Assembly (NCBI GenBank): GCA_024636785.1
Contig: JAGXGK010000015.1
Span: forward strand, 136,900-200,899
Source: Gammaproteobacteria bacterium
GTDB lineage: Bacteria > Pseudomonadota > Gammaproteobacteria > SZUA-229
Reading direction: 5' to 3'
Length of the DNA: 64,000 nucleotides
This document shows positions 2,882-27,740 of this stretch, piece after piece. A program made the position numbers and the translations under genes. How positions within the stretch are numbered: position 1 is the first letter of the stretch; each line of letters begins with the position of its first letter. Under the pieces are notes generated by a model. That model did not search any database. It was not told the DNA's origin and saw only the letters and a program-made list of their open reading frames with translations.

Positions 2882-4699
2882 TTACAGCGAAGACCAGATT
2901 TCGTCGAAGTCGTCCCTTTTTTTGGAGGTTTCTTCCTGTTTTTCGACCTTTTTCTGTTGAACGTGCTGATCCAGATGTGTGAACAGAAATTGTGTGAATA
3001 AGCCGGTATGTTCTTTCCGCTCATTTAGCCTTATTCTTATACTTTGGTCGAAAACCTCTACTTTTATTGTATCACCTGTTTTGAAGGTATGTGCGGGCAA
3101 TATGATTGTCGCAGGTTGATTGAGGGGCTTGATTCCCGGCACCATGAGTGCATCAAAGGGCGGGTCCTGAGGTCGATTGATGCGTTGCACTACCGTGGCA
3201 ACGACCTTGGGTGACAGTATCTGTACGCCTATTTCCAGGCCGTTGGTCACACTGAACTGCATCCAGCGTATGCTGCCTATGCGCCATTCGTTATTCCCAC
3301 GGGCATCCTGTTCGTGGATGGCGATGAGCTCTCCAATCTGGGCTTTGGAGGTGGTTTCCGAATTCCAGCGCAGGCAGTAACCGCCGGCGCTGACATTGGC
3401 CACCTGCCAGTGTAGATCTTCATCTTCCTTGTTCAGTTTGAGCTCTTCGGCAGCCTGCAGGGCTCGTTGGTTATGAAAGGTGTTGGTCATTGCCGTACCC
3501 TTGGCGACCATATCCCAGGCGTCACCGGATGCGTCGTTGGTGGCGGTATGAGTCATATAGGGCGATGAATTGTCATACATGGATTTTGCTTCATCAGGAA
3601 TATGTTCCAGAGTAAAGCCGTCGCCTCTATCGAAGGCGTTATGCACCGATTCGACTGACTCCGGTAAATTTCTTTCCCGAATCATTTCTGTTGCATGTTT
3701 TAGTCCGATAGCAGCAGCGATACCGCCCTGTTTCCCGGTTCTGGAGAATCGGCGTTTAGGCATTACTCCCCATGACAGGGACAGAGCTTTAAGTGTCTCT
3801 ATCGAAAGCTCCTCGCCGATGGTAATGGCATCGTGGTTATCTGAACTGTTGATCTGTTTGCGAATGTTGTCAACAAGCTCGGTGGTCTCCAGGGTAAAAA
3901 GCCGGCTGTCGTTCGCGCAGTCCTGTGGGTTCAGGTAGGACGGGGGCCGGTCTTCTTCAACGCGCGCACAAAAAAAACGGTCAATCTGGTTCTCCTGGGG
4001 ATGTATATCCAGTCTGGTTTGTGCAGCCCACTGATACAGCTTGTTGTAAACGCGTTGACTGTCGCTTTGACGCAGAGCAGTGGGTCGGGAGAGTGAAAAC
4101 AGCAACATTTGTTTATACAGGTCTTCGATGGTGGTTTTTTCACCGGGATGCTCATTGTCCCTGACCATGATTTTATATATTTCCAAATCAACCGCATAAG
4201 CGAACATCTGATGCGCGTCCCGCCAGACATTGGCGGGCACGGAGGCGTATATTTCGCTGGCGCGGAGGAAAAGCTCTGACTGATATTTGATGGCCCGGCT
4301 GATGGCGATGGCCTGAGTTTTGTTATCAATCTTTTCGATTTTATCGGCGGCCTGCTGGATGATGATCTTATAACCCAGTGCCATTTCCTGGAGCATGGCC
4401 TGATTGAGATTGACGATTTTTTTGCTTTTTTCGGGCAACGGAAAGGTGCGATTGACGAAATATTTTTTCAGATTATCAAAGATACCGCGGCAGGGCAGGC
4501 GCAGCATTTCCATAATCTCCAGACGGTGTTTGGCGGGTATTTTTTTACGGTTGAGCTCGCGAATCAGGCCGAAAATCTGTTTGGTCATTTCGCCCATATT
4601 GGCTTGGGGTAAATCGGACAGCCATTTCTTGAGCTTGCGCGGATGAATCGGAAAAGTGCTGTTGCCGATCTCAGTTTGTTCTGGTATGAGTAATTTCAT
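2882..4699 (-). CDS. fimW: FimW-like c-di-GMP-binding protein (PilZ-like C-terminal barrel)
   Basis: 605 aa; RRFSR and NVSAGG motifs (RxxxR / NxSxxG PilZ-type), helical N-terminus, directly upstream of fimX as in Pseudomonas. Confidence 0.7.
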   Translation of the reverse strand: MKLLIPEQTEIGNSTFPIHPRKLKKWLSDLPQANMGEMTKQIFGLIRELNRKKIPAKHRLEIMEMLRLPCRGIFDNLKKYFVNRTFPLPEKSKKIVNLNQAMLQEMALGYKIIIQQAADKIEKIDNKTQAIAISRAIKYQSELFLRASEIYASVPANVWRDAHQMFAYAVDLEIYKIMVRDNEHPGEKTTIEDLYKQMLLFSLSRPTALRQSDSQRVYNKLYQWAAQTRLDIHPQENQIDRFFCARVEEDRPPSYLNPQDCANDSRLFTLETTELVDNIRKQINSSDNHDAITIGEELSIETLKALSLSWGVMPKRRFSRTGKQGGIAAAIGLKHATEMIRERNLPESVESVHNAFDRGDGFTLEHIPDEAKSMYDNSSPYMTHTATNDASGDAWDMVAKGTAMTNTFHNQRALQAAEELKLNKEDEDLHWQVANVSAGGYCLRWNSETTSKAQIGELIAIHEQDARGNNEWRIGSIRWMQFSVTNGLEIGVQILSPKVVATVVQRINRPQDPPFDALMVPGIKPLNQPATIILPAHTFKTGDTIKVEVFDQSIRIRLNERKEHTGLFTQFLFTHLDQHVQQKKVEKQEETSKKRDDFDEIWSSL

Positions 4700-4816
4700 G
4701 ATTTTCTTGTCATTTATTTTTAGTGCATATTATATCGATAGTTACTAGAAGGTATAAGTACGGGTCTGTAAACATACACGGTATTCATCCCTGTTTTCAG
4801 CAAGTCTAGCTCAGAT

Positions 4817-5827
4817 CTAAGAAATTACTGATTTTGAGCAGGTGCCTTTTTCCTCGGCGACCAGCCGGGGAACCAGGTAGCCGGGTAATTTTGAGCGCAT
4901 ATTATCAATGATTCGGCAGGCTTTTTTACGGTTCACATCAAAGTGCATGCCTCCCTGAACCGGATCCAGCAAATGCAGATAGTAGGGCATGACGCCGCAA
5001 TCGTAGAGCCGGTGGCTCAGGGCGATCAGCGTGGCGGCGTCATCATTGATCGCTTTTAGTAAAACGCTCTGGTTTAACAGGGTGATGTTGGCGTTTTGCA
5101 GCGCCTGCAAAGCACGCATTTCATCCGCCGCTAATTCATTGGCGTGGTTAGCATGAATCACCATTGTGATTCGGAAACGCGACGCCTGCATCCAGCCGAG
5201 CAGGGCGGGGGTAATACGCGCAGGCAATACCACAGGTAAACGCGTGTGGATGCGCAGCCATTTAATATGCGCGATGCTTTCCAGATCGCGGCACAGCGAA
5301 GCCAGTTTGTCGTCATCCAGCACCAGCGGGTCGCCACCGCTCAGAATCACTTCATGAATATCAGTCTGCGCTTGCAAATAGGCCAACGTGGCCGGCCATT
5401 GCGATGATAACGCCTGAGCTTCGCTATAGGGAAAGTGGCGGCGGAAACAGTAACGGCAGTGGATGGCACAGGCGGCAGTGCTGATAATCAGGGCGCGACC
5501 GTGATATTTATGCAGCAGCCCGGGCGAGGGCATGGCGTTCAGGTCGCCGACCGGGTCGGCCTCGCCGCTCAGCGCATGTTCGGCCAGAGTTGGCAGAATC
5601 TGTAGCAGCAGCGGGTCGCGGGCATCCCCTTTATTCATCTTGTTGACATAGGCCTGCGGTACGCGCAGTCGAAATTCGGGGTTCAACTCAGTGTGTTCAA
5701 GCAGTAAATGTTCGAGTCCCAGCTGTTGCAGTAGCTCTGCCGGTGACGAAATGGCTTCTGCCAGCTGTCTTTTCCAGTCGCTTTTCAGGGTGGGCGGCAA
5801 AATAGTGTAGAGAGGTTGTGATTGCAT
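4817..5827 (-). CDS. epmB: EF-P beta-lysylation protein EpmB (KamA-family radical SAM)
   Basis: LLHKYHGR, CAIHCRYCFRR radical-SAM motif, SGGDPL, NQSVLLK; divergent from efp. Confidence 0.93.
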   Translation of the reverse strand: MQSQPLYTILPPTLKSDWKRQLAEAISSPAELLQQLGLEHLLLEHTELNPEFRLRVPQAYVNKMNKGDARDPLLLQILPTLAEHALSGEADPVGDLNAMPSPGLLHKYHGRALIISTAACAIHCRYCFRRHFPYSEAQALSSQWPATLAYLQAQTDIHEVILSGGDPLVLDDDKLASLCRDLESIAHIKWLRIHTRLPVVLPARITPALLGWMQASRFRITMVIHANHANELAADEMRALQALQNANITLLNQSVLLKAINDDAATLIALSHRLYDCGVMPYYLHLLDPVQGGMHFDVNRKKACRIIDNMRSKLPGYLVPRLVAEEKGTCSKSVIS

Positions 5828-5895
5828 ATGTGAAAACTGTGCCTATTCAGGGTATTATTGCGCCAACTTAAAACATCCAGCGGCAGCTTAACAAC

Positions 5896-6459
5896 ATGGC
5901 TACATATAGTACAAATCAATTCAAAAACGGGTTAAAGGTGATGGTCGATGGCGATCCGTATACGATTACAGAAAATATTCTGGTGAAGCCGGGTAAGGGG
6001 CAGGCGTTCAACCGCGTCAAATTGAAGAACCTGAAAAGCGGGCGTACGTTAGAGCGCACTTTGAAGGCTACCGAGTCGCTGGAAGGCGCAGATGTGGAAG
6101 AGCGCGATGTTGATTTTTTGTATAGCGACGGTGAAAACTGGCACTTCATGGAACCCGAAACTTTTGAGCAGCATGCCGCTGACAGTGTCGCCGTGGGTGA
6201 TGCGGCCAAATGGCTCAAGGGTCAGGAGCGATGTGTCATGACCTTATGGAATAATGCGCCGCTGACCATTGCTGTGCCAAATTTCGTTGAACTGGCCGTG
6301 GTGCAGACCGATCCTGGCCTGAAGGGTGACACCGCGCAGGGTGGCACCAAACCGTCGACACTGGAAACCGGCACAGAAGTGAAGGTTCCGCTGTTTATCG
6401 AAATCGGCGACATCCTTAAAATCGACACCCGTACCGGTGAGTATGTCTCTCGGGCCTGA
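5896..6459 (+). CDS. efp: translation elongation factor P
   Basis: KPGKGQAF loop, [23 protein letters not shown]. Confidence 0.97.
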
Positions 6460-9625: not shown

Positions 9626-10357
9626 TCAATTCAACATGTCTAAAAAGTTTAATAACCACGGTAGAATCACCGCTGTGGCGAAGGCTGATAGTGCCATGGC
9701 CAGTGCCGAGAAGGCACCCATTTCCGGGCTTACCTGAAAGGCGCGGGCGGTGCCGATGCCGTGTGCGGATATGCCCATGGCGATGCCTTTCACGCTGTCG
9801 TCCTTGATGCGCATCAGTTCAAAAAGTTTGCTGCCGATGACGGCGCCAATGATGCCGGTGAGCACCACCAGCACGGCGGTGAGTGAGGGCAGACCGCCGA
9901 TCTGTTCGGAGATGCCCATGGCTACCGGCGCGGTTACCGATTTGGGCGCGAGCGATAGCTGGGTCTGTAAACTCGCACCCAGAAACCAGGCGATTCCAAT
10001 CGAGCTGAAAGCGCCGATGAGCGCCCCCGAGATAACGGTAATGGCGACGGGTAAAAACAGTTTTCTTAATTTTGAGCACTGCTGGTAGAGCGGAACGGCC
10101 AGGGCAACGGTGGCGGGGCCGAGCAGGAAATGTACAAACTGGCCGCCCTCGAAATAGGTTTCATACGAGGTGCCGGTGAGTACAAGCAAGATGATTAGCG
10201 CGATCACCGAAGTCAGTACCGGGTTCAACAGCGGATTGGAATGGGCATAAATATAAAGCTGATGGGCCAGGCTGTAGGTCACCAGTGTAATGGTGAGCCC
10301 CAGTAACGGGGTGGTGGATAGATAGACCCAGATTGCGGCCAGGTCCCGTTCAATCAT
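9626..10357 (-). CDS. LrgB/CidB family membrane protein
   Basis: LLGPATVALAVPLY, SLAPKSVTAPVAMG, AHGIGTARA; ATG at 10357 overlaps upstream stop. Confidence 0.92.
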   Translation of the reverse strand: MIERDLAAIWVYLSTTPLLGLTITLVTYSLAHQLYIYAHSNPLLNPVLTSVIALIILLVLTGTSYETYFEGGQFVHFLLGPATVALAVPLYQQCSKLRKLFLPVAITVISGALIGAFSSIGIAWFLGASLQTQLSLAPKSVTAPVAMGISEQIGGLPSLTAVLVVLTGIIGAVIGSKLFELMRIKDDSVKGIAMGISAHGIGTARAFQVSPEMGAFSALAMALSAFATAVILPWLLNFLDMLN

Positions 10358-17040: not shown

Positions 17041-18369
17041 ATGAAAACACTGACCGCACCCGATCATCCTAGCCTCTGGCAGGCTATGCAATACTGGTTC
17101 AAACTGGGCTTCATTAGTTTCGGCGGACCCGCCGGACAAATTTCAATCATGCATCAGGAACTGGTGGAAAAACGCCGCTGGATTTCCGAACGCCGCTTTC
17201 TGCATGCGCTGAATTACTGTATGTTATTGCCCGGCCCCGAGGCCATCCAGCTGGCTATCTATATCAGCTGGCTCATGCACGGCGTCATCGGCGCCATCAT
17301 CGCCGGCGTATTATTTTTTCTACCCGCATTTATTCTGTTATCACTGCTGGCTGTCATTTATCTCACCTGGGGCGACGTCACTTTAGTGCAGGGCATTTTT
17401 TACGGCATTAAACCGGCCGTGGTGGCAGTGGTGTTATTTGCCGCCTGGCGCATTGGCTCACGTGCACTCAAAAATAAAATTCTGTGGACTATGGCGGCGC
17501 TCGCCTTTGTTGGTATTTTTGTTTTTGATATCAGCTTCCCCTGGATTGTGCTGGCCGCAGCCATACTGGGTGCAGCGGGCGGCAAGTGGCTGCCGGAAAA
17601 ATTCAAAACCGGTGGCGGTCACGGCAGCAGCGACAAAGACTACGGCCCGGCAATCATCGACGATGATTCACCCGTGCCGGCACATGCGCGTTTTTCCCTT
17701 AAAAAACTGGCGGCAAAGATAATTTTGTTCAGCCTGATCTGGCTTGTCGCCATGTACGTTGTTAGCGCTGAACCTACGCTGTTGAAGATGGGCGAATTTT
17801 TCACCAAAGCCGCCTTCCTGACCATCGGCGGTGCCTACGCCGTTCTGCCCTACGTATATCAGGGTGCCGTCGAAAATTACCAATGGCTGACCGGCCCGCA
17901 AATGATCGACGGCCTCGCCTTAGGTGAAACCACGCCCGGTCCACTCATCATGATCGTGACCTGGGTCGGTTATCTCGGTGCGGTTTCAAAAGAAATATTC
18001 GCTAACACGTTTGTCGCCGGACTGGCCGGTGCAGCTGTCGCCACTTTCTTTACTTTTCTGCCTTCATTTTTATTTATCCTCACCGGCGGCCCCATGGTCG
18101 AAGCCACTCGCAACGAACTGAAATTCACCGCTCCCCTAACGGGTATCACCGCCGCCGTAGTTGGCGTTATTGTCAACCTGGCCGTATTTTTTGCATGGCA
18201 CACCTTCTGGCCCAGCGCTACCATCAGTAAACCTTTTTCAGGCTCATTTGAATGGTTGCCAGTAATAGTTGCCATCGCCAGTTTCATTGCTCTATGGAAA
18301 TACAAAATCGATATCATGAAAGTGATAGGTGTATGTGCTTTGATTGGTCTGGTTTATGCGTATCAGTAG
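17041..18369 (+). CDS. chrA: chromate efflux transporter (long-chain CHR)
   Basis: SFGGPAGQI, LPGPEA.QL, TIGGAYAVL, GETTPGPLI; two homologous halves. Confidence 0.92.
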   Translation: MKTLTAPDHPSLWQAMQYWFKLGFISFGGPAGQISIMHQELVEKRRWISERRFLHALNYCMLLPGPEAIQLAIYISWLMHGVIGAIIAGVLFFLPAFILLSLLAVIYLTWGDVTLVQGIFYGIKPAVVAVVLFAAWRIGSRALKNKILWTMAALAFVGIFVFDISFPWIVLAAAILGAAGGKWLPEKFKTGGGHGSSDKDYGPAIIDDDSPVPAHARFSLKKLAAKIILFSLIWLVAMYVVSAEPTLLKMGEFFTKAAFLTIGGAYAVLPYVYQGAVENYQWLTGPQMIDGLALGETTPGPLIMIVTWVGYLGAVSKEIFANTFVAGLAGAAVATFFTFLPSFLFILTGGPMVEATRNELKFTAPLTGITAAVVGVIVNLAVFFAWHTFWPSATISKPFSGSFEWLPVIVAIASFIALWKYKIDIMKVIGVCALIGLVYAYQ

Positions 18370-18424
18370 AAATTAAGTTGGGCGGTTTTTTTATCGGCCA
18401 GGCGCGACAAATTCGACAGGCACG

Positions 18425-18590
18425 GTGGTGCACGGAAGTACTGATGATAAACCTAAGGATGGAATGAATTTGAATAGCCGATTTTAGGCTAGCCCCATCG
18501 GGGCAAATACCATGGAAGGTATTTGTAATATTAAACAGCCGTTTTATGGCTGGCCTGCAGGGCAAAACACAGGGAAGTATTTTGTAATCC
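18425..18590 (+). ncRNA. candidate CsrB/Rsm-type RNA or CsrA-binding leader (multiple GGA hairpins)
   Basis: gtgCACGGAAGtac, cctAAGGATgg, caaatacCATGGAAGgtatttg, caaaacaCAGGGAAGtattttg; two ~60-nt related units. Confidence 0.5.
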
Positions 18591-18892
18591 CGCTCGCTGA
18601 TCTTAATTCGCCGTCATTAGTTAAGTCTCCAGCCAATAATCAGGCCTGCTCACCTGATATTTATTTACTCGGATAGGCTCAGTGGCCGCACACGCTTCGT
18701 TGATTTTCGTTGAAAGTGGGTTTTCATTTACTATAACTAACTGAAATATCAGTGGATTATTTTTATCCTGAAAGCGTACGAATTTTGACGAACAAATTAC
18801 TGGCAATCACTGGTCATCCTTATTAACTTGGTCTCTGCTACAGAAACGAACATTTAGCTGGTTATTAAATAAAAAAATATGGAGTAAATGAG

Positions 18893-20329
18893 ATGAACAA
18901 AAATGATACAAAATGTGCCACCGGTTCCTGTCTTGGGCGTTGGGTAAAGAAAACGCTTTATGGCAGTGCCCTGGTGGGTCTGGCCATGACCATGGCTTCA
19001 CCTGTCGCAATGGCGGATGACAAGAAAGGTTTCCAGACTTTTACCCCCTATAATCGTGTGGCCAAGTTGCCGGTAGTGTTGAACGCCGACCGTAAAACTG
19101 ACTACGTTGCCACCTATAACAAGGCAAAAGCGGCATCACTGGCGCTGGCCAATTACGTGGCGCGTTACCATGATGAAGAAGTGCTCGGTGCAGATGTTAT
19201 CAAGGGCGATGACTGGGTACTCGGCGGCACCTCGCTGGCCTGCCGTAAGGCCCGCACCTGTACTGATGAAGAAATTTCCGGTGCCATTCTGGGTATTCCG
19301 GCACCGGAGCCGATCGACCCGGCGCTGCCATTGTCGAAAGCCAACACCAAAAAAGCCAACGTAATGGATTTCTGCAACGAGCATTACGCCAAGCAGGCTT
19401 TGGGCGTGTCACCGATTGTGGGCGACAAGAAAGTTGTGAACGGTTATTCACACACTTCGGCGCTGCCCTGTGAAGTCTCCATCTGGAATGATGGCGACTA
19501 TATCTATGTGGATATGCTCGATCCCAATGCGATTTTCAGTCTGTTCTTCACCGACGTGCTGTTCAGTGATGACATGAATGACCCGGCTTTCGCCGAAGCC
19601 ATTTCTGCGCTGCCGCCACAGGTAAAATCTGAAATCCGCGCCATCGTCCAGCACGCCATGGTCGAGTTCGATCCCAAGGCCGAGCCCATGAACAAGCCCC
19701 TGGGGCCCAAGTACAAGAAAATGGACGAGGTGGTCAGCGTGGTGGCTATGTCACCGGAACAATCCCCCTACAAGCACGTGAGCTACACCCGTGTTGATGG
19801 TGGTGTGTTTACCGCTGCCGATTCCTCAGGCGTCACCCAGGCTATCATCAACACGATGAGTATCCATGGTACGGCTGATGAAGGTGTTCACTCAACGGTG
19901 ATCGAAGACGACGGGTCCACTCTGGACAGCATTCTCAGCCCCAAATCGAGCTGGCGTTCGGCGCGTGCCACACCGCTGACGCTGCCAGGCAAAAACCATA
20001 TCGTCGAGGCCTGCTCACCGAAGTACGCCAAGATGGCGATGAGCACCGGCCTGCACCACGTCACCGCACTGCCCTGTGAAATCACGGTGCAGATTCTCGA
20101 CAGAGACGGTGATGGCAGCAAGGAAACTCTGGTAGTCAGCTACCTGGATCCACACTTTATGCTGGGTGCTCTGTTCGCGGATATTTCCGCGGAAGACCAG
20201 GTTGCTTTCGCAGACATTCCAGGCAACATCTTGGATGATCTGCAGAAGATTGTAGCTGCGGCATTGGAGTTCAATTCAGGTATTGCTCTGAACGAAGGTG
20301 TGCAGATTAGTTACAACATGCTGCCCTGA
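18893..20329 (+). CDS. exported protein with two DUF302-like domains
   Basis: Signal peptide ending AMA; repeated motif FCNEHYAKQAL...HTSALPCEVSI...MLDP and ACSPKYAKMAM...HVTALPCEITV...YLDP. Confidence 0.65.
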   Translation: MNKNDTKCATGSCLGRWVKKTLYGSALVGLAMTMASPVAMADDKKGFQTFTPYNRVAKLPVVLNADRKTDYVATYNKAKAASLALANYVARYHDEEVLGADVIKGDDWVLGGTSLACRKARTCTDEEISGAILGIPAPEPIDPALPLSKANTKKANVMDFCNEHYAKQALGVSPIVGDKKVVNGYSHTSALPCEVSIWNDGDYIYVDMLDPNAIFSLFFTDVLFSDDMNDPAFAEAISALPPQVKSEIRAIVQHAMVEFDPKAEPMNKPLGPKYKKMDEVVSVVAMSPEQSPYKHVSYTRVDGGVFTAADSSGVTQAIINTMSIHGTADEGVHSTVIEDDGSTLDSILSPKSSWRSARATPLTLPGKNHIVEACSPKYAKMAMSTGLHHVTALPCEITVQILDRDGDGSKETLVVSYLDPHFMLGALFADISAEDQVAFADIPGNILDDLQKIVAAALEFNSGIALNEGVQISYNMLP

Positions 20330-20400
20330 TAAGCGTGATGAGTGAGTAAAACGCCTCCTGGTGAGTCCGTGGTGAGTTCGGTATGTAGTAAGTATTGCCG

Positions 20401-20436
20401 ACCTCCATGCCACGGATTTACCCAGGAGGTTTTTTT
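20401..20436 (+). terminator. possible intrinsic terminator
   Basis: ACCTCC...GGAGGT stem followed by T-run; loop is long. Confidence 0.4.
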
Positions 20437-20458
20437 GGATGAACAGGCTGGATCAACA

Positions 20459-20974
20459 ATGAAAATAATGATTGCTTTAACCATTGCCCTGCTGGGCATG
20501 AGCCTGCAGGCGAGGGCGGTCGATTATGAATTACCGGATCTCGACGGCAAACCACAGGCGCTCGACCAGTACCTCGGTAAGTGGGTGGTGGTGAATTACT
20601 GGGCCACCTGGTGCAACACATGCATCAAGGAACTGCCGGACCTTATCGCCTTGCATGAAGGTAATAAAGATGGCGAAATAGTCGTCGTCGTCGGCATAAA
20701 TTACGAGATGATAAATTTAGATAGACTGAAAAACTTTGTGGCACAGTATTCCATTCCCTATTTGGTTCTACGCAGCGAACCGGTGTCGACGACACCGCTG
20801 GGCCCAGTGCCGGCCCTGCCTACCACCTATATCATTAACCCCGAGGGGATAACCGTAGCCGGCGAGATCGGTATAGTCACCCGGCAAAATCTTGAAGATT
20901 ATATAAATGAGAGAAAAGCCGCCTATGAACGCACTAAAATCACACGGCAGCCCGAAGCTGAAATTCAGGGTTGA
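20459..20974 (+). CDS. TlpA-family thiol-disulfide oxidoreductase, exported
   Basis: Signal peptide, GKWVVVNYWATWCNTCIKELP, LPTTYII; start taken at ATG 20459. Confidence 0.9.
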   Translation: MKIMIALTIALLGMSLQARAVDYELPDLDGKPQALDQYLGKWVVVNYWATWCNTCIKELPDLIALHEGNKDGEIVVVVGINYEMINLDRLKNFVAQYSIPYLVLRSEPVSTTPLGPVPALPTTYIINPEGITVAGEIGIVTRQNLEDYINERKAAYERTKITRQPEAEIQG

Positions 20975-21343
20975 ATTTTAACTGGATTGAGACCGATTCT
21001 CTGAGCAAAGCAGTTCAGATAAAGGCTTAGGCTCCTAACTTTTATCATCTATAACGCCTGCGAGAAATCTCTGAAATAGTGGTTGAAGTGTCAGCTCTTT
21101 ATGCAGGCATTGACGTGCTAAATGGATTGCTCCAGGAAGGATCACCCTTTGCTTTAATCGCCATAAACCCGACAGTCTACTGGAACCATAAACAGCACAT
21201 CCTTTCACCATGGCCCTGATCTGTGCCGCCTGTGAACCCAGCACAGATTTGCGCGGCAGAGTCTATTCTTCCTGCTGATAGTATGGCGTCACCATAGTCA
21301 GCTATACTTTTATGGATGGTTATTAAGAGTATGGTTATTTCCT

Positions 21344-21775
21344 ATGTTGTTTAATATTCAAAAGCCGGGCATGGTTATATTACTGCTGCTGGCTTCACCA
21401 TTGTGGGCGAATTCCAGGTCGGTCGCGCCGGAGAGTATTCCCGGTGCGGTGATGGTGAGTGCGGAGGAGGTGATCGAGCTGATTCTGACCAGTCCTGAGC
21501 TGGTGGTGATTGATTCGCGCAAGAAAAACGAGTACAGCAAAGGGCATATCGAGAGCGCGGTGAATCTGCTGAATGCCGATATGCAGCCGGAGATGCTGGC
21601 CGAACTGGTGCCGGACAAGTCGGGCGCGATTCTATTTTACTGTAATGGGATTCACTGTCTGCGCAGTGCTGATGCGGTGAGCAAAGCGTTGAGCTGGGGA
21701 TATGAAAATATTTTCTGGTTCAGAGGCGGTTGGCAGGAATGGACAGAAAAACGGCTTCCGATGATATCCGATTAA
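21344..21775 (+). CDS. exported single-domain rhodanese
   Basis: Signal peptide (LWA), VIDSR, GHIESAVNL, FYCNGIHCLRS, FRGGWQEW. Confidence 0.88.
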   Translation: MLFNIQKPGMVILLLLASPLWANSRSVAPESIPGAVMVSAEEVIELILTSPELVVIDSRKKNEYSKGHIESAVNLLNADMQPEMLAELVPDKSGAILFYCNGIHCLRSADAVSKALSWGYENIFWFRGGWQEWTEKRLPMISD

Positions 21776-21811
21776 TCGCTGAGTTTGATTATATATTTCG
21801 GTTATAAACTA

Positions 21812-23683
21812 ATGCGCGTAGAAAATATTTCTATCAGGGCGGCAACGATATTCATTTTTACAATGATTGCAGTGGTAGCGATTATTCTGTCGTTGTTTGC
21901 CGGTAATTATTTCAGGCAGTCGGCGCTGGATGCGCAGGTGAGTAATCTATCGCGTGTAATTGAAGTGGCTGCACAGGAAATGTTCAAGCATGTAAGAGAT
22001 CATACTTTTGATCTGGGGATGAAGCTGGGTAACAATGCCGAGCTGATTAAGGCGGTTGATGAAATTGAGTCACCAGGAGGTGAGTCGAAGCTGGAGGCGT
22101 TACTGGATGATCCGTTTATTAATGGCTTTGTTGGTATTGCCGAAATCGATATGGTCAAGCTCAGGGTTTATGATCTGAATTTGCGCCTACTGGCCGAGAG
22201 CAGTCAGGGGGTGACCGATCTGGTGCGTGCGCCGTCTGTTTATCTGCAAAATATACTTCAACAGCGCCGGGGGGTTGAACGCCTGAAAGCCGTTGATGGA
22301 CTGTGGAACTCGCCGCACGGGCCATTATATTCTACGGTGGTGCCGGTGGGCGGATTACGACTGATGGCTTATCTGGAAGTGGTCGTTAACCCGGCGTTTA
22401 ATGTTCCGGAAATCGGCAAAATCACTAAAACACCGGTCAATGTGTTTTCCGCCACCGGCAAGCCGTTGAGCAATGCTGCAAACGAAGACCGTGCTCATTT
22501 TCTGCCTGTGGAATTTAATCTTTTGGCCTCAGACGGCGAACTCGCCTTTCGTATTGTTGGCTACGAAAATGTCGAAAAACTCAATGAGGAAATGGAAAAC
22601 ACGCGCACGGTCACTATCAGTGGTTTTTTGCTGCTCTCAATGCTGTCACTGGCTTTCGCGCTCTGGCTGTTTAACCGTTTTCTATTTATACCGGTGAGCC
22701 GGATGATCACTGATATGGATAAGATCGCCGGTGGCAATATGAAAATAGAAGTAAACAGAACGGGTCTGCGGGAATTTTATCTGCTTGCCAAAAGCTTTAA
22801 TGCCATGGCTGACAAGGTAAAACTCAGAACAGATGAACTCAGAGATTCGCAAAACCGTCTGCGCCATCTGCTCGATCTGGATGAATACGCCATTTTGTAT
22901 TTTGCTCTTGATCATGGCGTGCTTTATTTTAATAAAAGCACTTCGGATCTTTTTGGTTATGACAATGGCGAAATCAATGATCTGGAATTCACTGATCTGT
23001 TTACCGATGATGTTACAAAATTAATATCCAGTCTGAATAAGGACGCGGGGCAAAACAGATTACAGATGAAAATGCAGTGTCGGACTAAAGCCGGCGCAGT
23101 TTTTCAGTGTCATGCGATGGTCAGGCAATTAGAAATTATGGGGGAGCCGGGCTATGCCGTGGTCATCCGCCCTGCAGCCAGCCTGCCGGCTGATCTGAAC
23201 CAGCAGTTCACTACGAATAGTGGCGAGCTTGATGAAGTCGGCGCTAGACAGGTTGAACAGTCGCTGAAACGGATCATAGAAATCGCCAGTGATAACCCGG
23301 CACTGTTACTGGGGCTGGATGTGTCAGGGTTGTCCGAGTCGCAACTGAATACAGCAGCAGACAAGAAAACCTTGCTGCGTGAACGTGCTGTTGCGGTAAT
23401 GTCGGCGGTACTGGCTTGCTGGGAATATGATCTGGGCAAGAGCAAGGTTGATCTGGCAGATGCGAGCGGCATCTGGCCGGTATACATGGACAAGTCGACA
23501 CCGACCACGCGCACCCTTGACCGATACCTGCATATCGACACCTGTCCCAAAAATCCGCGCTGTCAGCGGGTAGTAGATACCGCTGAATTTGTACTCAGGC
23601 AAATCGGTGGTCGGCAGACCTCATACCGGCAAAAACTGGCCGAGACGCTCGACGCGTTACGTCAGACGATAACAGGCGTGTAG
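21812..23683 (+). CDS. membrane sensor: TM-periplasmic domain-TM-HAMP-PAS-uncharacterised output domain
   Basis: Two TM helices, HAMP (PVSRMITDMDKIAGGNM...EFYLLAKSFNAMA), PAS (LLDLDEYAILYF...YFNKSTSDLFGY); no H-box, GGDEF, EAL or MCP motif. Confidence 0.78.
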   Translation: MRVENISIRAATIFIFTMIAVVAIILSLFAGNYFRQSALDAQVSNLSRVIEVAAQEMFKHVRDHTFDLGMKLGNNAELIKAVDEIESPGGESKLEALLDDPFINGFVGIAEIDMVKLRVYDLNLRLLAESSQGVTDLVRAPSVYLQNILQQRRGVERLKAVDGLWNSPHGPLYSTVVPVGGLRLMAYLEVVVNPAFNVPEIGKITKTPVNVFSATGKPLSNAANEDRAHFLPVEFNLLASDGELAFRIVGYENVEKLNEEMENTRTVTISGFLLLSMLSLAFALWLFNRFLFIPVSRMITDMDKIAGGNMKIEVNRTGLREFYLLAKSFNAMADKVKLRTDELRDSQNRLRHLLDLDEYAILYFALDHGVLYFNKSTSDLFGYDNGEINDLEFTDLFTDDVTKLISSLNKDAGQNRLQMKMQCRTKAGAVFQCHAMVRQLEIMGEPGYAVVIRPAASLPADLNQQFTTNSGELDEVGARQVEQSLKRIIEIASDNPALLLGLDVSGLSESQLNTAADKKTLLRERAVAVMSAVLACWEYDLGKSKVDLADASGIWPVYMDKSTPTTRTLDRYLHIDTCPKNPRCQRVVDTAEFVLRQIGGRQTSYRQKLAETLDALRQTITGV

Positions 23684-24029
23684 CCTGATCAGTCAAAAGT
23701 TTAGGTAATGAATTTAGTCGCCATTCATGGCGAATGGCCGCTACCAATGCCGGAAGCTGAGGCAGTTTGTAAAGGGAGGGTTAAAAGCGCCTTTCTATTT
23801 CATGCTGGCGCATAAAAAAATGTAGAATCTGCAACGAATTGTGCAGTAGTAGTCGATTCTCAGGGCCAGGTATTACTTATCAAATGTTATAATATGGGAT
23901 CCAAATCTGTATTTGTTAAGTGATGGTGAACGATTTTTAACCAATTCCAGTACTTTTAGACTCATTTATATTGGACAAGGTGCGGGGTGGTTTTCAGCGA
24001 AATGGAGGAGTTTATACCTTACTATACTC

Positions 24030-24376
24030 AAATTCCTGGCGAGCATACCGGTGAGGGAATGCATCTGGTTGCGGCTGGTGAACAGAGTGAATTTCCCGGG
24101 GCCGGTCTCGCGCAGGCGGTCTTCCATGATCTGGAAGGCCTCATCCCGGGAGATCACTACAAAATCCGGGCTGTCCCGGTCGGTTGACGCCTTTGCGGTA
24201 TCGAAGCAGCCTGGTCAGTCGCGCCAGCGAATACCGCTTCATATCGCCCCAGCTGGCTTTGGCGTAGATTACCCCCCCTTACTGAGAGGGTGGTTCGGGT
24301 TGTTCTGGATGTGGCGCACCTCAACGTCGCGTAGGCTGAATCATATGCTACAACGACAGATGCACACGTAAAAAGG
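24030..24376 (-). pseudogene. soeA: decayed 5' fragment of SoeA-like molybdopterin sulfite dehydrogenase
   Basis: Three-frame reading: YVCICRCSI*FSLRDVEVRHIQNNPNHPLSKG / VIYAKASWGDMKRYSLARLTRLL / DFVVISRDEAFQIMEDRLRETGPGKFTLFTSRNQMHSLTGML; one stop, two frameshifts. Confidence 0.72.
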
Positions 24377-24492
24377 GGGTATAACTTTTTTGTATAGGGG
24401 GCTTAGTATTACTATGCTCGACATTTGCTCATTTTAAAGATAACCTATCGCCCAATAATTCAATAACGATAATTTTTTAGAGGATAATCCCA

Positions 24493-25344
24493 ATGTTCAC
24501 GAACAATCCTTTTGCCGAGCTTTCGGCATCTATACCACCCAATATAATGCAGGGGTATCTCATTTTGATGGTGCTGCTGGTTATAGGTGGCACAATACTT
24601 GACATGATTCACAAAAAAAGCGCGCGGTACTTTTTCGAAAATGCGGAAAAGGCGAAGGCGAATGCGAAACGGGCAGTGGGTACTGGAGAAAAAGCAAGTA
24701 TTGCTATTTCAACGGTAGCAAGCGAAGTATTAACTTCTTCTGAATTCTGTAACGTAAGACGTAGATTTTCACATCTTTTGACCATGTACGGTTTCATTAT
24801 ATTTGTTGTTACTACCGTCATTATGATTTTTGGCTATTCAGCTCCTGGATCATCCATGCCGGGCATCCTGCCACTACTCTGGCATATAGGTGCGCTCATG
24901 CTGGCTGTTGGTGGTTACTGGTTCTGGTTTTTTATCCGGGTTGATGTCTCTGCGGAGGGCCTGCCATGGAATCGTCTGGAACGTGCAGATTTGTTTATTC
25001 TCTCACTGCTCGCAACCTCAACTTTCGGATTGATCTGGTCCTTTCTACAGTCACAAGGTGTTTCTATGGCATCAACCATAGCCTTCGCTTTGTTTATCGT
25101 GTCAAGTACGGTGCTTTTTGGCGGCGTACTGTGGTCCAAGTTTGCGCATATGTTCTTCAAGCCAGCGGCAGCTTTTCAGAAAAAAGTTACCAGAGCGGAT
25201 GGCTCCAGAGAGAATTTACCTGAAGAGTATGATTTGACCGATCCTGCTGTACAGAAAAGATTTCCCGATATCCCTGAGTATATGGGCAAGACTCCACCCT
25301 ATATGGGGCTTGGTATTAAGCGTGAGAAACCAAACCACTACTAA
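24493..25344 (+). CDS. aprM: APS reductase membrane anchor AprM
   Basis: Multi-TM, HKKSARYFF, SHLLTMYG, WFWFFIRVDV, WSKFAHMFFKP; directly upstream of aprB. Confidence 0.9.
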   Translation: MFTNNPFAELSASIPPNIMQGYLILMVLLVIGGTILDMIHKKSARYFFENAEKAKANAKRAVGTGEKASIAISTVASEVLTSSEFCNVRRRFSHLLTMYGFIIFVVTTVIMIFGYSAPGSSMPGILPLLWHIGALMLAVGGYWFWFFIRVDVSAEGLPWNRLERADLFILSLLATSTFGLIWSFLQSQGVSMASTIAFALFIVSSTVLFGGVLWSKFAHMFFKPAAAFQKKVTRADGSRENLPEEYDLTDPAVQKRFPDIPEYMGKTPPYMGLGIKREKPNHY

Positions 25345-25386
25345 TACTCACATAACTAAATTAACTTTAAAATAAAGAGAAATATT

Positions 25387-25869
25387 ATGCCAACTTTTGT
25401 ATATATGACTCGTTGTGATGGTTGTGGGCAATGCGTAGATATTTGTCCATCCGACATCATGCACATCGATAAAACACTGAGACGTGCTTATAACATTGAA
25501 CCTAACATGTGCTGGGAATGTTATTCCTGTGTAAAGGCCTGCCCTCACCAGGCAATTGATGTACGTGGCTACGCCGATTTTGCGCCACTGGGTCATTCGG
25601 TACGTGTACTTCGTGATGAAGAAAAAGGCACCATTGCCTGGCGCATCAAGTTCCGCAACGGTAAAAAAGACATGGAGCTGCTGGCGCCTATCACAACCAA
25701 GCCATGGGGCGAATTTATTCCTCAGCTTGCTGATGAGCCTGTTCCTAGCAAGGAGATGCGCGATAGCCATCTGCTGTACAACGAACCTAAATACATTCGT
25801 CTCGATGAAGGTGGTCTCCACACGCTCGAGTCCAATGGGCTGACACTGAAAGCGGGAGTATATTACTGA
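25387..25869 (+). CDS. aprB: adenylylsulfate reductase beta subunit
   Basis: MPTFV, CDGCGQCVDICP and CWECYSCVKACP ferredoxin motifs, VRGYADFAP. Confidence 0.97.
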   Translation: MPTFVYMTRCDGCGQCVDICPSDIMHIDKTLRRAYNIEPNMCWECYSCVKACPHQAIDVRGYADFAPLGHSVRVLRDEEKGTIAWRIKFRNGKKDMELLAPITTKPWGEFIPQLADEPVPSKEMRDSHLLYNEPKYIRLDEGGLHTLESNGLTLKAGVYY

Positions 25870-27740
25870 TGGGATACAAAACAATTATTGAAGACGATAT
25901 TGACGTTCTGGTCGTTGGCGCTGGTTTAGGCGGTACTGGTGCGGCTTTCGAAGCAAGATATTGGGGCAAGGATAAGAAAATTGTCATTGCAGAAAAAGCA
26001 AATATCGATCGTTCCGGTGCGGTAGCTCAGGGTCTTTATGCTATCAACTGTTACATGGGTACACGCTGGGGTGAGAACAATCCAGAAGATCACGTCCGTT
26101 ATGCTCGTATGGATCTGATGGGTATGGTTCGTGAAGATCTCGCCTTCGATATGGCGCGTCACGTTGACTCCGCTGTACATCAGTTTGAAGACTGGGGTCT
26201 GCCACTGATGAAAAACCCTGAGACAGGTGCATACCTGCGTGAAGGGCGTTGGCAGATCATGATTCACGGTGAATCATATAAGCCGATTGTTGCAGAAGCA
26301 GCGAAAAAATCAGCAGACAAAGTGTTTAACCGTATCTGCGTAACCCATCTGCTGATGGATGACGCCAAAGAGAACCGTGTCGCGGGTGCTGTAGGCTTCA
26401 ATGTACGTACTGGTAACTACCATGTATTCAAGTCCAAAACCGTAATCTGTGGCGCCGGTGGTGCATCCAATATCTTCAAGCCGCGTTCAGTTGGTGAAGG
26501 TGCGGGTCGTGTCTGGTACGCACCATGGTCATCCGGGTCTGCGTATGGTCTTATGATCGATGCAGGCGCGAAGATGACTCAAATGGAAAACCGTATCGTA
26601 CTGGCCCGATTCAAGGATGGTTACGGTCCTGTAGGCGCATACTTCCTGCACCTCAAGACTTATACGCAAAACTGTCTGGGTGAAGAGTATGAATCCAAGT
26701 GGTTCCCGGCTCTAACTGAAATGGTAGGTAAAGAGTATCTGGATACGGAAGGTCAGCATTTATCCCACAAACCAATACCGACCTGTTTGCGTAACCATGC
26801 ATTTATTTCAGAAGTAAATGCCGGTCGTGGTCCGATCCACATGGTCACTATGGAAGCCTTCCAGGACCCTCATCTTGAAGAGATTGGCTGGCACAACTTC
26901 CTGGGTATGACTGTTGGTCAGGCAGTACTTTGGGCTGCAACTGACGTTGATCCTAAATACGAAAACCCTGAATTAACAACTTCTGAGCCGTATGTAATGG
27001 GTTCGCATGCAACAGGTTGTGGTGCATGGTGCTCAGGTCCGGAAGATGTGTCTCCAGATGAATATTTTTGGGGCTACAACCGTATGACCTCAGTCGAAGG
27101 CCTGTTTGGCGCAGGTGATGCGGTAGGTGGTACACCTCATGCGTTCTCATCGGGCTCTTTCACGGAAGGTCGTCTGGCTGCTAAAGCTGCCTGTCAATAT
27201 ATTGATGATGGCAAAGCGAAGGGCATTCGTGTTTCCGAGCAACAGATTGAAAACCGTAAAAAAGAAATCTACAAACCAATGGAAACATATACTGTAGGTC
27301 GTAACGAAATTGTTGGGGGTAGTGTTAACCCTAATTACATCAACCCACGTCAGGGGCTTGATCGTCTGCAGAAGATGATGGACGAGTACTGTGGTGGTTT
27401 TGGTGTGAACTACATGACCAACGAAAAGCTACTCCAGATCGGTCTTAAGAAAATGAAGATTTTTGAGGAAGATCTGGAAAAAGTCGCTGCTGAAGATATC
27501 CATGAACTACTGCGTGCATGGGAACTGAAGCACCGTTTCCGTACTTCTGAGAGCGTGTTCCAGCATACGTTGTTCCGTAAGGAGACACGTTGGCCTGGTT
27601 ACTACTACCGTGGTGATGCGATGAAGCTGGATGATGAAAACTGGCATGTATTGACAGTTTCTCATCGTGATCGTAAAACTGGTGAGTACACAATGGAAAA
27701 AGCGCCTTGTTACCATCTGGTAGGTGAGAACGAGGAATAA
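25869..27740 (+). CDS. aprA: adenylylsulfate reductase alpha subunit
   Basis: GAGLGG FAD motif, RSGAVAQGL, WQIMIHGESYK, RFKDGYGPVGA, FSSGSFTEG, ETRWPGYYYR. Confidence 0.98.
   Translation: MGYKTIIEDDIDVLVVGAGLGGTGAAFEARYWGKDKKIVIAEKANIDRSGAVAQGLYAINCYMGTRWGENNPEDHVRYARMDLMGMVREDLAFDMARHVDSAVHQFEDWGLPLMKNPETGAYLREGRWQIMIHGESYKPIVAEAAKKSADKVFNRICVTHLLMDDAKENRVAGAVGFNVRTGNYHVFKSKTVICGAGGASNIFKPRSVGEGAGRVWYAPWSSGSAYGLMIDAGAKMTQMENRIVLARFKDGYGPVGAYFLHLKTYTQNCLGEEYESKWFPALTEMVGKEYLDTEGQHLSHKPIPTCLRNHAFISEVNAGRGPIHMVTMEAFQDPHLEEIGWHNFLGMTVGQAVLWAATDVDPKYENPELTTSEPYVMGSHATGCGAWCSGPEDVSPDEYFWGYNRMTSVEGLFGAGDAVGGTPHAFSSGSFTEGRLAAKAACQYIDDGKAKGIRVSEQQIENRKKEIYKPMETYTVGRNEIVGGSVNPNYINPRQGLDRLQKMMDEYCGGFGVNYMTNEKLLQIGLKKMKIFEEDLEKVAAEDIHELLRAWELKHRFRTSESVFQHTLFRKETRWPGYYYRGDAMKLDDENWHVLTVSHRDRKTGEYTMEKAPCYHLVGENEE

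Follow-up and report, generated by a model that had tools for sequence, protein, structure and literature searches.

In the 64-kb stretch of gammaproteobacterial DNA analyzed here (64,000 nucleotides (nt) of contig JAGXGK010000015.1, assembly GCA_024636785.1; hereafter, the window), a gene for an exported rhodanese is located directly upstream of a gene for a transmembrane sensor that carries no kinase. Sequence searches, structure prediction and a survey of related loci lead us to favor, with moderate confidence, the view that the two proteins constitute a single signaling unit of the type represented by ChiS, the chitin sensor of Vibrio cholerae, but without kinase or receiver; this unit is predicted to control exported redox proteins, with the rhodanese acting as co-sensor. 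The rhodanese and the sensor are a fixed gene pair in sulfur-oxidizing bacteria, and they probably switch on neighboring genes whose products are exported redox proteins, and not the apr genes. The C-terminal domain of the sensor and its domain architecture are already published. A literature search, which did not cover subscription journals, yielded no published account of the rhodanese partner and its linkage to the sensor, of the predicted complex, of the predicted operator or of the predicted target genes.

The rhodanese and sensor genes form a conserved pair

The product of the upstream gene matched the Pfam Rhodanese family (PF00581) with an expectation value (E) of 8e-18 and 65.2 bits (cut-off, 22.2). 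Its N-terminus is hydrophobic (MVILLLLASPLWA) and was assigned by eye as a signal peptide, and its active-site loop, YCNGIHCLRS, contains two cysteines, C100 and C105. The hydrophobic N-terminus and the loop pattern CNGxxCxRS were kept in all 47 rhodanese sequences, and C77, N78, G79, C82, R84 and S85 (C100 to S108 of the precursor) were invariant in a 34-row alignment of the mature proteins. The loop is headed by an invariant cysteine (C100), as expected of a rhodanese active site, but it is not of the standard six-residue form. Compared with that of the closest solved relative, 6MXV (E 3.8e-27), it has a two-residue insertion and an extra cysteine (CNGxxCxRS versus CGG--GFRS). Scores under the family models for PspE, GlpE, TsoB and LYCAU were below their cut-offs. 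At one of the related loci described below (L055, 4158–5169), fragments of an IS91-family transposase (Zn_Tnp_IS91, Y2_Tnp) are located directly 5′ of the rhodanese gene.

The conserved start of the sensor gene is the ATG at 21812, in agreement with the N-termini of homologues; a TTG at 21785 opens a non-conserved extension of the open reading frame (ORF), which gives a 632-aa ORF. Two hydrophobic spans (residues ~10–32 and 268–290) flank 235 periplasmic residues. The HAMP and PAS domains were weak in Pfam (PAS_9; E 4e-4 each, below gathering), and the NCBIfam sensory_box model gave 29.8 bits (cut-off, 22.9); the weak matches were consistent with one another. No HisKA, HATPase, receiver, GGDEF, EAL or methyl-accepting chemotaxis protein (MCP) domain was found in the sensor with Pfam or NCBIfam. 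Since HisKA, HATPase_c and receiver domains are lacking, the sensor is neither a ChiS orthologue nor a two-component kinase. The original prediction had described an exported two-cysteine rhodanese encoded 36 nt before a HAMP-PAS sensor with two transmembrane (TM) segments and without a kinase, cyclase, phosphodiesterase or MCP module, and the ORFs, coordinates, motifs and domain searches all agreed with that description.

A scan with one genome per species yielded 66 related loci (designated by L numbers). According to the record titles, the carriers were mostly gammaproteobacterial metagenome-assembled genomes (MAGs), Thiobacillus/Thiobacillaceae/Hydrogenophilales, Thiotrichales, Thiogranum and Candidatus (Ca.) Thiodiazotropha; three odd bins were labelled Methylococcales, Rhodothermales and Gemmatimonadota. 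Among the 55 loci that contained the sensor N-terminus and more than 150 nt of upstream DNA, a rhodanese homologue was located on the same strand, 15–133 nt 5′ of the sensor gene, in 54, and it was absent from none. At the 55th locus (L059, a Ca. Thiodiazotropha chromosome), the rhodanese gene is 2.6 kb 5′ of the sensor gene (3358–6000), and the predicted operator described below is 1.3 kb (1281 nt) past the sensor gene, compared with ~160 nt elsewhere; insertions are the likely cause of both the separation and the shift. The sensor is linked more tightly to the rhodanese (54/55) than to any target gene (26/50). This survey bears out the linkage that had been claimed from the window alone and, together with a complex model that passed its controls (see below), makes the rhodanese look like a dedicated partner of the sensor.

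The sensor carries a ChiS-type C-terminal domain

When the last 154 residues of the sensor were compared with the PDB by phmmer, one strong match was obtained, to chain A of 7KPO (E 2.8e-18, 82 residues without a gap). This entry is the DNA-binding domain of V. cholerae ChiS (residues 1024–1129; Klancher et al. 2021, mBio, PMC8092284; statements drawn from this paper refer to those of its sections covered here). An AlphaFold2 (AF2) model built from a 52-row alignment showed a helix at model residues 76–83, strands at 89–91 and 94–96, and a helix at 98–102, with a predicted local distance difference test score (pLDDT) mostly above 89 over model residues 45–154. In a Foldseek search with this model, 7kpo was the sole PDB match at E≤1e-3 (E 6.9e-8; template modeling (TM) score, TMt, 0.90; root-mean-square deviation 1.5 Å over 105 columns; 37% identity). 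By sequence and by modeled structure, the C-terminal domain is thus the ‘helix-sheet-helix’ DNA-binding domain of ChiS, and the sensor is predicted to bind DNA. What had initially been taken for an XRE-like helix-turn-helix with an inserted hairpin corresponds to this helix-sheet-helix.

In ChiS, substitution of R1068, R1074, K1078, R1090 or R1092 with glutamine abolishes DNA binding (PMC8092284). We mapped these residues through the phmmer alignment, with position 3 of the chain being ChiS residue 1024 according to the construct description in that paper. Four of the five are kept as lysine or arginine in the sensor: R1068 corresponds to K561, R1074 to R567, K1078 to R571 (lysine in most relatives) and R1090 to R583. 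The fifth, R1092, corresponds to an invariant glutamine (Q585), which is followed by an invariant arginine (R586). In a 25-sequence alignment of the family, the mapped basic positions were invariant or nearly so, and W555–R586, which includes the recognition helix, was the most conserved stretch of the sensor.

The DNA-binding domain occupies the extreme C-terminus of the sensor (514–623 of 623), behind the sensory domains. A search with the C-terminal part alone returned 890 cluster representatives at E≤1e-3, and the match ended near the C-terminus in the 150 that were listed. The Pfam architectures of 13 representatives were varied (HAMP-PAS, 7TMR-DISM-HK-Rec-PAS, HAMP-HK-Rec, Ser/Thr kinase-STAND-GAF-PAS, dCache-HAMP and others), in agreement with the 2021 paper, which places the ChiS-type domain ‘exclusively at the C terminus’ and commonly fused to sensory domains (PMC8092284). 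Data Set S1 of the same paper contains a ‘HAMP-PAS-ChiS DBD’ (DNA-binding domain) group of 13 accessions from Ca. Thiodiazotropha endoloripes, a Ctena orbiculata symbiont, a Galathealinum endosymbiont, Hydrogenophilales bacterium 28-61-23 and unclassified gammaproteobacteria. The group, matched here by description and not by sequence, has the domain order of the sensor (TM-periplasmic-TM-HAMP-PAS-DBD, ~620 aa) and comes from the same lineages as the 66 loci, one of which (L042) is from the Hydrogenophilales MAG of the same name. In the sections covered, this group appears as a list and a domain diagram only, and neither a function nor a partner, operator, targets or signal is stated for it (PMC8092284). 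The output domain and the architecture, presented as undescribed in the original prediction, had therefore been published in 2021, together with the structure of the domain.

Periplasmic domain and predicted complex with the rhodanese

The 235-residue periplasmic domain matched no Pfam family even at E≤10, dCache and sCache models included. Its AF2 model (pLDDT 87) consists of a long N-terminal helix followed by two PAS-like alpha/beta modules. Foldseek returned 111 PDB matches at E≤1e-3 with TM scores of only 0.4–0.55, headed by the KinD sensor (4jgo, E 1.6e-8) and the periplasmic domain of LuxQ (3c38, E 5e-7, TM score 0.51–0.55), with CqsR, DctB and Tlp3 next. As judged from the model, the domain is of the tandem-PAS/dCache-like fold. 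LuxQ is the textbook case of a tandem-PAS domain controlled by a bound periplasmic protein.

We modeled the periplasmic domain (41-row alignment) together with the mature rhodanese (34-row alignment). Three runs gave ipSAE interface scores of 0.68, 0.70 and 0.70, whereas the best of three controls scored 0.00; contacts agreed by at least 96% among runs, and the pLDDT of the partner was at least 92. Of 157 solved complexes, 116 attained the mark applied to ipSAE, as did 2 of 215 mismatched pairs; these counts are a rough guide here since custom alignments were used. No solved structure in which a rhodanese is bound to a tandem-PAS domain is known to us, and it therefore seems unlikely that the model passed by reproducing a memorized structure. 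The predicted interface comprises sensor residues 66–67, 70–71, 74, 155, 158–161, 177–178 and 180–183 and rhodanese residues 41, 44–45, 47–48 and 70 plus the C-terminal tail (136–142). On the sensor side, 10 of the 16 interface residues occupy alignment columns with a conservation of 90% or more, compared with 72 of 235 overall (p 0.0065). The model supports, without showing it, binding of the rhodanese to the periplasmic domain, and is in line with the periplasmic partnership that had been proposed for the two proteins.

A predicted operator upstream of the DUF302 gene

Upstream of the rhodanese gene, the window contains a gene for an exported protein with DUF302 domains, followed by a gene for a TlpA/ResA-like thioredoxin. 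We searched for shared sites in 27 DUF302-upstream regions (26 from the related loci, and that of the window). The 8-mer ACGAACAA was present in 21 of the 27, compared with a maximum of 7 in 20 shuffles, and GACGAACAA in 19 (shuffle maximum, 4). Regions aligned on ACGAACAA had cgTACGAAttttGACGAACAAa...CTGG in common, and the six regions without an exact ACGAACAA carried variants of one or two bases at the same place; by inspection, a site was present in 27/27. The shorter word TTTTGACG occurred in 13 of the regions (shuffles: mean 0.29, maximum 2). In the window, this proximal predicted operator is ~100 nt 5′ of the DUF302 start codon. A distal element, which is the proximal repeat pair in inverted orientation, accompanies it: TTTCGT, with CGT 10 bp before, was located exactly 71 nt upstream in 20 of the 27 regions and at 68–82 nt in 3 further regions (73 nt in the window), and the exact word was absent in 4.

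A 36-column position weight matrix (PWM) was built from 26 DUF302-region sites and applied with a prefilter under which at least one of the repeat positions had to read ACG. Over the source assembly (1.94 Mb), it gave a single match of at least 10 bits, the window site itself (53 bits), a count that is a lower bound because the assembly is 72.55% complete. Within the window, the proximal site holds the sole exact copy of TTTTGACGAA. Downstream DNA of 250 nt or more was available past the sensor gene at 60 loci, of which 49 had a tandem site, ACG[AG]-N6-ACGA[AC], on the coding strand within 600 nt past the sensor stop codon; over 603,076 bases, there were 64 matches on the coding strand, whereas the opposite strand and the reversed sequence had 13 each. 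At five of the other 11 loci (L001, L002, L021, L036 and L045), the site was 1.8–5 kb downstream, where it was also scored by the PWM and preceded a DUF302, cytochrome or Tll0287-like gene. At L063, a variant with 7-nt spacing was seen by eye at the usual place, and L028 had the site on the opposite strand, in front of a divergent cytochrome gene. Scores at the nine Ca. Thiodiazotropha loci were below 12 bits, but all nine had the variant ACGAA-N5-ACGAAAAA together with the distal element, 160–166 nt past the sensor stop codon (1281 nt in L059).

Two looser patterns were set aside. A composite regular expression for the distal and proximal elements matched 44/66 loci and 7/66 reversed loci, but 3 sites in the genome against 18 in its reverse. 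Counts of ACGA-N6-ACGAACAA with one mismatch in four genomes were not above a backwards control, and three of the matches pointed to the Ca. Thiodiazotropha variants. An extra operator-like site (22.8 bits) was observed 5′ of the rhodanese gene itself at L013 (5280).

In the published 60-bp Pchb probe, both ChiS sites read TTTTGACGTT, and the non-binding mutant alters only CGT (primer table, PMC8092284). The core of the predicted operator, TTTTGACGAA, resembles these sites in sequence. In both systems, a second ACG is located one helical turn from the core, at 9 bp in Pchb (our own count) and at 10 bp here.

Predicted target genes

The position of this ChiS-like predicted operator 5′ of the DUF302 and TlpA genes is consistent with the ‘neighbouring thiol proteins’ of the original prediction as the likely target. 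Among 50 loci with at least 2 kb of downstream DNA, the DUF302 gene was 3′ of the sensor gene in 26 and the TlpA gene in 24; the order in the window differs, in that both genes precede the rhodanese gene. The DUF302 protein has two DUF302-like repeats, and its cysteine pairs C161/C193 and C374/C395 were invariant in 24 sequences. No solved relative was found by sequence (best E, 0.41), and in the Atlas only ‘DUF302 hypothetical’ clusters were matched. In the part of an earlier paper covered here, DUF302 genes were noted beside sox genes, their function not being known (PMC5037610). The TlpA/ResA-like protein matched Pfam AhpC-TSA (E 1.1e-15) and, below the cut-off, NCBIfam ResA (E 2.9e-22), and its WCxxC motif was invariant in 22 sequences. 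In the window and at 23 loci, the DUF302 gene was always followed by that of a WCxxC TlpA-like protein. The two proteins look like a periplasmic thiol-redox couple.

At 11 loci (L018, L021, L023, L025, L027, L028, L031, L045, L051, L055 and L060), a pentaheme cytochrome replaces the DUF302 and TlpA proteins behind the operator. It is an exported protein of ~790 aa with five CxxCH motifs and faint c554/MtrC-like Pfam matches, and it has no homologue in the window. The PWM, which had been trained on DUF302 regions only, gave 17.7–34.9 bits before the cytochrome gene in 10 of the 11 loci; at L031, there was no match of at least 12 bits. Further sites precede genes for a Tll0287-like protein (L001) and a c554-like multiheme fragment (L024). 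At L061 (a Thiobacillus MAG), a site at 10338 (30.1 bits) is located after the TlpA gene and before a gene for a cadherin/cytochrome c/cytochrome d1 protein, and at L040 a variant site precedes the gene for a 447-aa protein with a weak OprD-porin match. At L021 (7932–9206) and L045 (8155–9354), a gene for a pyridoxal phosphate-dependent enzyme (PALP family) was observed between the sensor gene and the operator-cytochrome unit.

Evaluation of alternative explanations

Several observations weigh against a unit of rhodanese and sensor acting through this operator. With respect to the partner, the ipSAE value is the complex model’s own confidence, and the rhodanese side of the interface is not significantly conserved (7/13 versus 43/120, p 0.13). 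The catalytic loop of the rhodanese is outside the predicted interface, and the route from the state of the loop to the sensor is therefore unexplained. Tandem-PAS/dCache-type domains usually bind small ligands directly. With respect to the operator, a tandem site was missing from the 600 nt next to the sensor gene in 11 of the 60 loci, and at L003, L011, L015 and L058 none was present in the DNA examined. The word TTTTGACG occurred in none of 44 rhodanese-upstream regions, where no operator was found; the top 8-mer in these regions, CTGGCACC, was in 7 of them (shuffle maximum, 6). The CG core is followed by AA in the predicted operator and by TT in the ChiS sites, and the inverted pairs are ~71 bp apart, in contrast to two direct sites ~30 bp apart for ChiS. 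The single genomic site is a minimum count, and the predicted targets are heterogeneous and their functions are not known.

The explanation that survives best besides the one that we favor is that the sensor is of ChiS type, with the rhodanese merely a co-transcribed enzyme or a regulated product and the tandem-PAS domain itself binding a small ligand. The fold matches to ligand-binding sensors (KinD, which binds pyruvate, DctB, Tlp3 and CqsR), the position of the catalytic loop outside the predicted interface and the non-significant conservation on the rhodanese side all speak for it. However, the linkage of the two genes is near-obligate, with gaps of at most 133 nt in 54/55 loci from beta- and gammaproteobacterial lineages, whereas the target genes were linked in only 26/50; the complex model scored 0.70 against 0.00 for the controls; the sensor side of the interface is conserved; and periplasmic partner proteins are used by both ChiS and LuxQ. 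Taken together, these points make a bystander role for the rhodanese rather doubtful.

It is also unlikely that the ACGAA-repeat element is the site of another regulator or a promoter element, the sensor having its targets elsewhere or not binding DNA. The differences in sequence detail and arrangement from the ChiS sites, and the replacement of R1092 by Q585, would fit such a possibility. Nevertheless, the element travels with the sensor gene before at least three unrelated target genes, has the TTTTGACG core in common with experimentally defined ChiS sites and is unique in the assembly, and the recognition helix is in the most conserved stretch of the sensor.

The original prediction also held that the pair might control aprMBA through the region between the sensor gene and aprM (23684–24492), to which it is adjacent in this window only. 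This appears very improbable: AprM, AprB and AprA were found by tblastn at 0/66 related loci (flanks up to 6 kb), and no operator-like site is near the apr genes, since neither a PWM match of at least 10 bits in the assembly nor an exact TTTTGACGAA in the window occurs outside the site that precedes the DUF302 gene. The apr genes are not part of the rhodanese-sensor system.

Finally, the notion that the sensor gene encodes a ChiS-type hybrid histidine kinase in decayed or truncated form, prompted by the same DNA-binding domain at the end of HK-Rec proteins of ~1100 aa, has a negligible likelihood. Scoring of 8000 candidates gave 431 relatives at E≤1e-3, of which the best 120 were 590–648 aa long, with 50–81% identity and 97–100% coverage, and were therefore full-length rather than remnants of a kinase; the gene was intact as a single high-scoring segment pair in 47 loci, and the architecture stands as a group of its own in the 2021 catalogue (Klancher et al. 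2021, PMC8092284).

Gene organization of the locus

The positions of the genes, sensor domains and predicted sites are listed in Table 1.

Table 1. Genes, sensor domains and predicted regulatory sites of the rhodanese-sensor locus (positions in the window).
Feature	Position	Strand	Remarks
Chromate-transporter gene	17041–18369	+	Followed by a 523-nt spacer
Distal predicted operator element	18696–18715	+	Pair of TTCGT repeats at a distance of 10 bp; orientation opposite to that of the proximal pair
Proximal predicted operator	18772–18807	+	ACGAA repeats in tandem at a distance of 10 bp; 18783–18792 is the core TTTTGACGAA, then CTGG
Gene for exported DUF302 protein	18893–20329	+	478 aa; Pfam DUF302, E 5.5e-11
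TlpA/ResA-like thioredoxin gene	20459 (probable start)–20974	+	Followed by a 369-nt spacer
Rhodanese gene	21344–21775	+	143 aa; Pfam Rhodanese
Sensor gene	21812–23683	+	623 aa; 36 nt past the rhodanese stop codon; followed by an 809-nt spacer; domain order TM1, tandem-PAS periplasmic domain, TM2, HAMP, PAS, helical linker, ChiS-family DBD (predicted)
Sensor, periplasmic domain (residues 33–267)	21908–22612	+	AF2, Foldseek
Sensor, cytoplasmic HAMP (~291–340) and PAS (~344–453)	22682–23170	+	Pfam, NCBIfam; converted from the 632-aa ORF numbering
Sensor, ChiS-family DNA-binding domain (residues 514–623; helix, beta-hairpin, helix), predicted	23351–23680	+	phmmer, AF2, Foldseek
aprM, aprB, aprA	24493–27740	+	3′ of the sensor gene, beyond the spacer

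The region 18300–24600 had no Rfam match at gathering scores, and no RNA run was listed as containing it. A sigma-70 scan of the same region found 8 candidates (shuffle mean, 9.4), none of them at the operator, and a terminator scan found 7, not above shuffles (6.1). The spacer before the operator contains two adjoining copies of a small element of ~60 nt (18468–18590), and elsewhere in this assembly, contigs C2, C6 and C53 carry four partial copies of it (30–55 nt, 90–97% identical). In the spacer between the sensor gene and aprM, the five longest stop-to-stop frames matched no Pfam family at E≤1, and on this weak test the soeA relic that had been placed there was not recovered; the spacer holds no Pfam-recognizable frame, Rfam match or operator-like site.

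Proposed mechanism and comparison with known systems

According to published work on ChiS, in the parts covered here, ChiS binds DNA from the membrane, requires two helically phased sites, is thought to bind as two dimers and is controlled by the periplasmic protein CBP. By analogy, the sensor may remain anchored in the membrane while regulating, its periplasmic tandem-PAS domain carrying the exported rhodanese as an accessory subunit, in parallel with CBP on ChiS and LuxP on LuxQ. If these precedents apply, the rhodanese would modulate the sensor from the membrane-distal part of the periplasmic domain, and HAMP and the cytoplasmic PAS domain would relay the signal to a dimeric ChiS-family DNA-binding domain. 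The latter would bind the two ACGAA repeat pairs (core TTTTGACGAA), ~71 bp apart, and, as for ChiS, binding would most likely activate transcription. In the window, the operon under control would be that for the double-DUF302 cysteine protein and the TlpA-like oxidoreductase (18893–20974); in other lineages, the same sites would act on genes for the pentaheme cytochrome, other c-type cytochromes or a porin-like protein.

As to the input, the chemistry of the loop suggests the persulfide, disulfide or thiol state of C100 and C105, which may be set by thiosulfate, polysulfide or related periplasmic sulfur species. A sulfur or redox signal of this kind would fit the predicted targets, with the invariant cysteine pairs of the DUF302 protein, the WCxxC oxidoreductase and the c-type cytochromes, as well as the sulfur-oxidizing lineages of the carriers. 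We put forward only tentatively the complete chain of events, in which the tandem-PAS domain would read the state of the rhodanese loop (persulfide or disulfide) and the signal would pass without phosphorylation to the ChiS-type domain, thereby switching on a periplasmic thiol/heme module (double-DUF302 and TlpA proteins, pentaheme cytochrome, porin) in free-living and symbiotic sulfur oxidizers. If this chain is true, the system would represent the first case of a reactive-sulfur sensor outside the cytoplasm that is based on a sulfurtransferase, and the DUF302 proteins of sulfur oxidizers could be approached through their regulon.

Within its family of DNA-binding proteins, only ChiS has been studied, and the sensor would be a second, much simpler member without kinase or receiver. 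The locus yields three testable predictions, which concern the partner, the operator and the target genes. If they hold, they would show how sulfur oxidizers, among them the symbionts of lucinid clams (Ca. Thiodiazotropha) and Thiobacillus, sense the sulfur chemistry of the periplasm, tie DUF302 proteins to a defined regulatory circuit and add a sulfurtransferase to the few periplasmic accessory proteins that control transmembrane regulators.

CstR, SqrR and FisR are cytoplasmic, soluble repressors that sense sulfane sulfur with their own cysteine residues. If our reading of the signal is right, the present system would resemble them in cysteine-based sensing of reactive sulfur that controls sulfur-oxidation genes; unlike theirs, the sensing would be periplasmic, would take place on a separate rhodanese and would be transmitted across the membrane. 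Among single-domain or periplasmic rhodaneses, PspE, GlpE, Sud and 6MXV share with the partner the rhodanese fold and the cysteine that starts the active-site loop, although the loop of 6MXV is two residues shorter and lacks the second invariant cysteine; BH2092 (3o3w) also has a CxGxxC loop. We know of no signaling role for rhodaneses of these types. LuxP-LuxQ, the autoinducer-2 receptor of Vibrio (complexes 2hj9 and 1zhh), has in common with the pair the tandem-PAS periplasmic fold and a bound periplasmic regulator, the latter predicted for the sensor. However, LuxQ is a hybrid kinase with a phosphorelay output and LuxP is a periplasmic binding protein.

The closest parallel is with ChiS of V. 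cholerae. Both proteins have two TM segments and a periplasmic domain, and in both a PAS domain immediately precedes the helix-sheet-helix DNA-binding domain at the C-terminus, the latter predicted for the sensor from its sequence match and model (E 2.8e-18; TMt 0.90). Both also have a periplasmic partner protein, which for the sensor is a prediction, and paired sites with a common TTTTGACG core. Unlike ChiS, the sensor has no HisKA, HATPase or receiver domain and hence no phosphorylation control; its predicted partner is a rhodanese, whereas that of ChiS is a solute-binding protein, and its predicted targets are exported redox proteins in place of the chitobiose genes controlled by ChiS.

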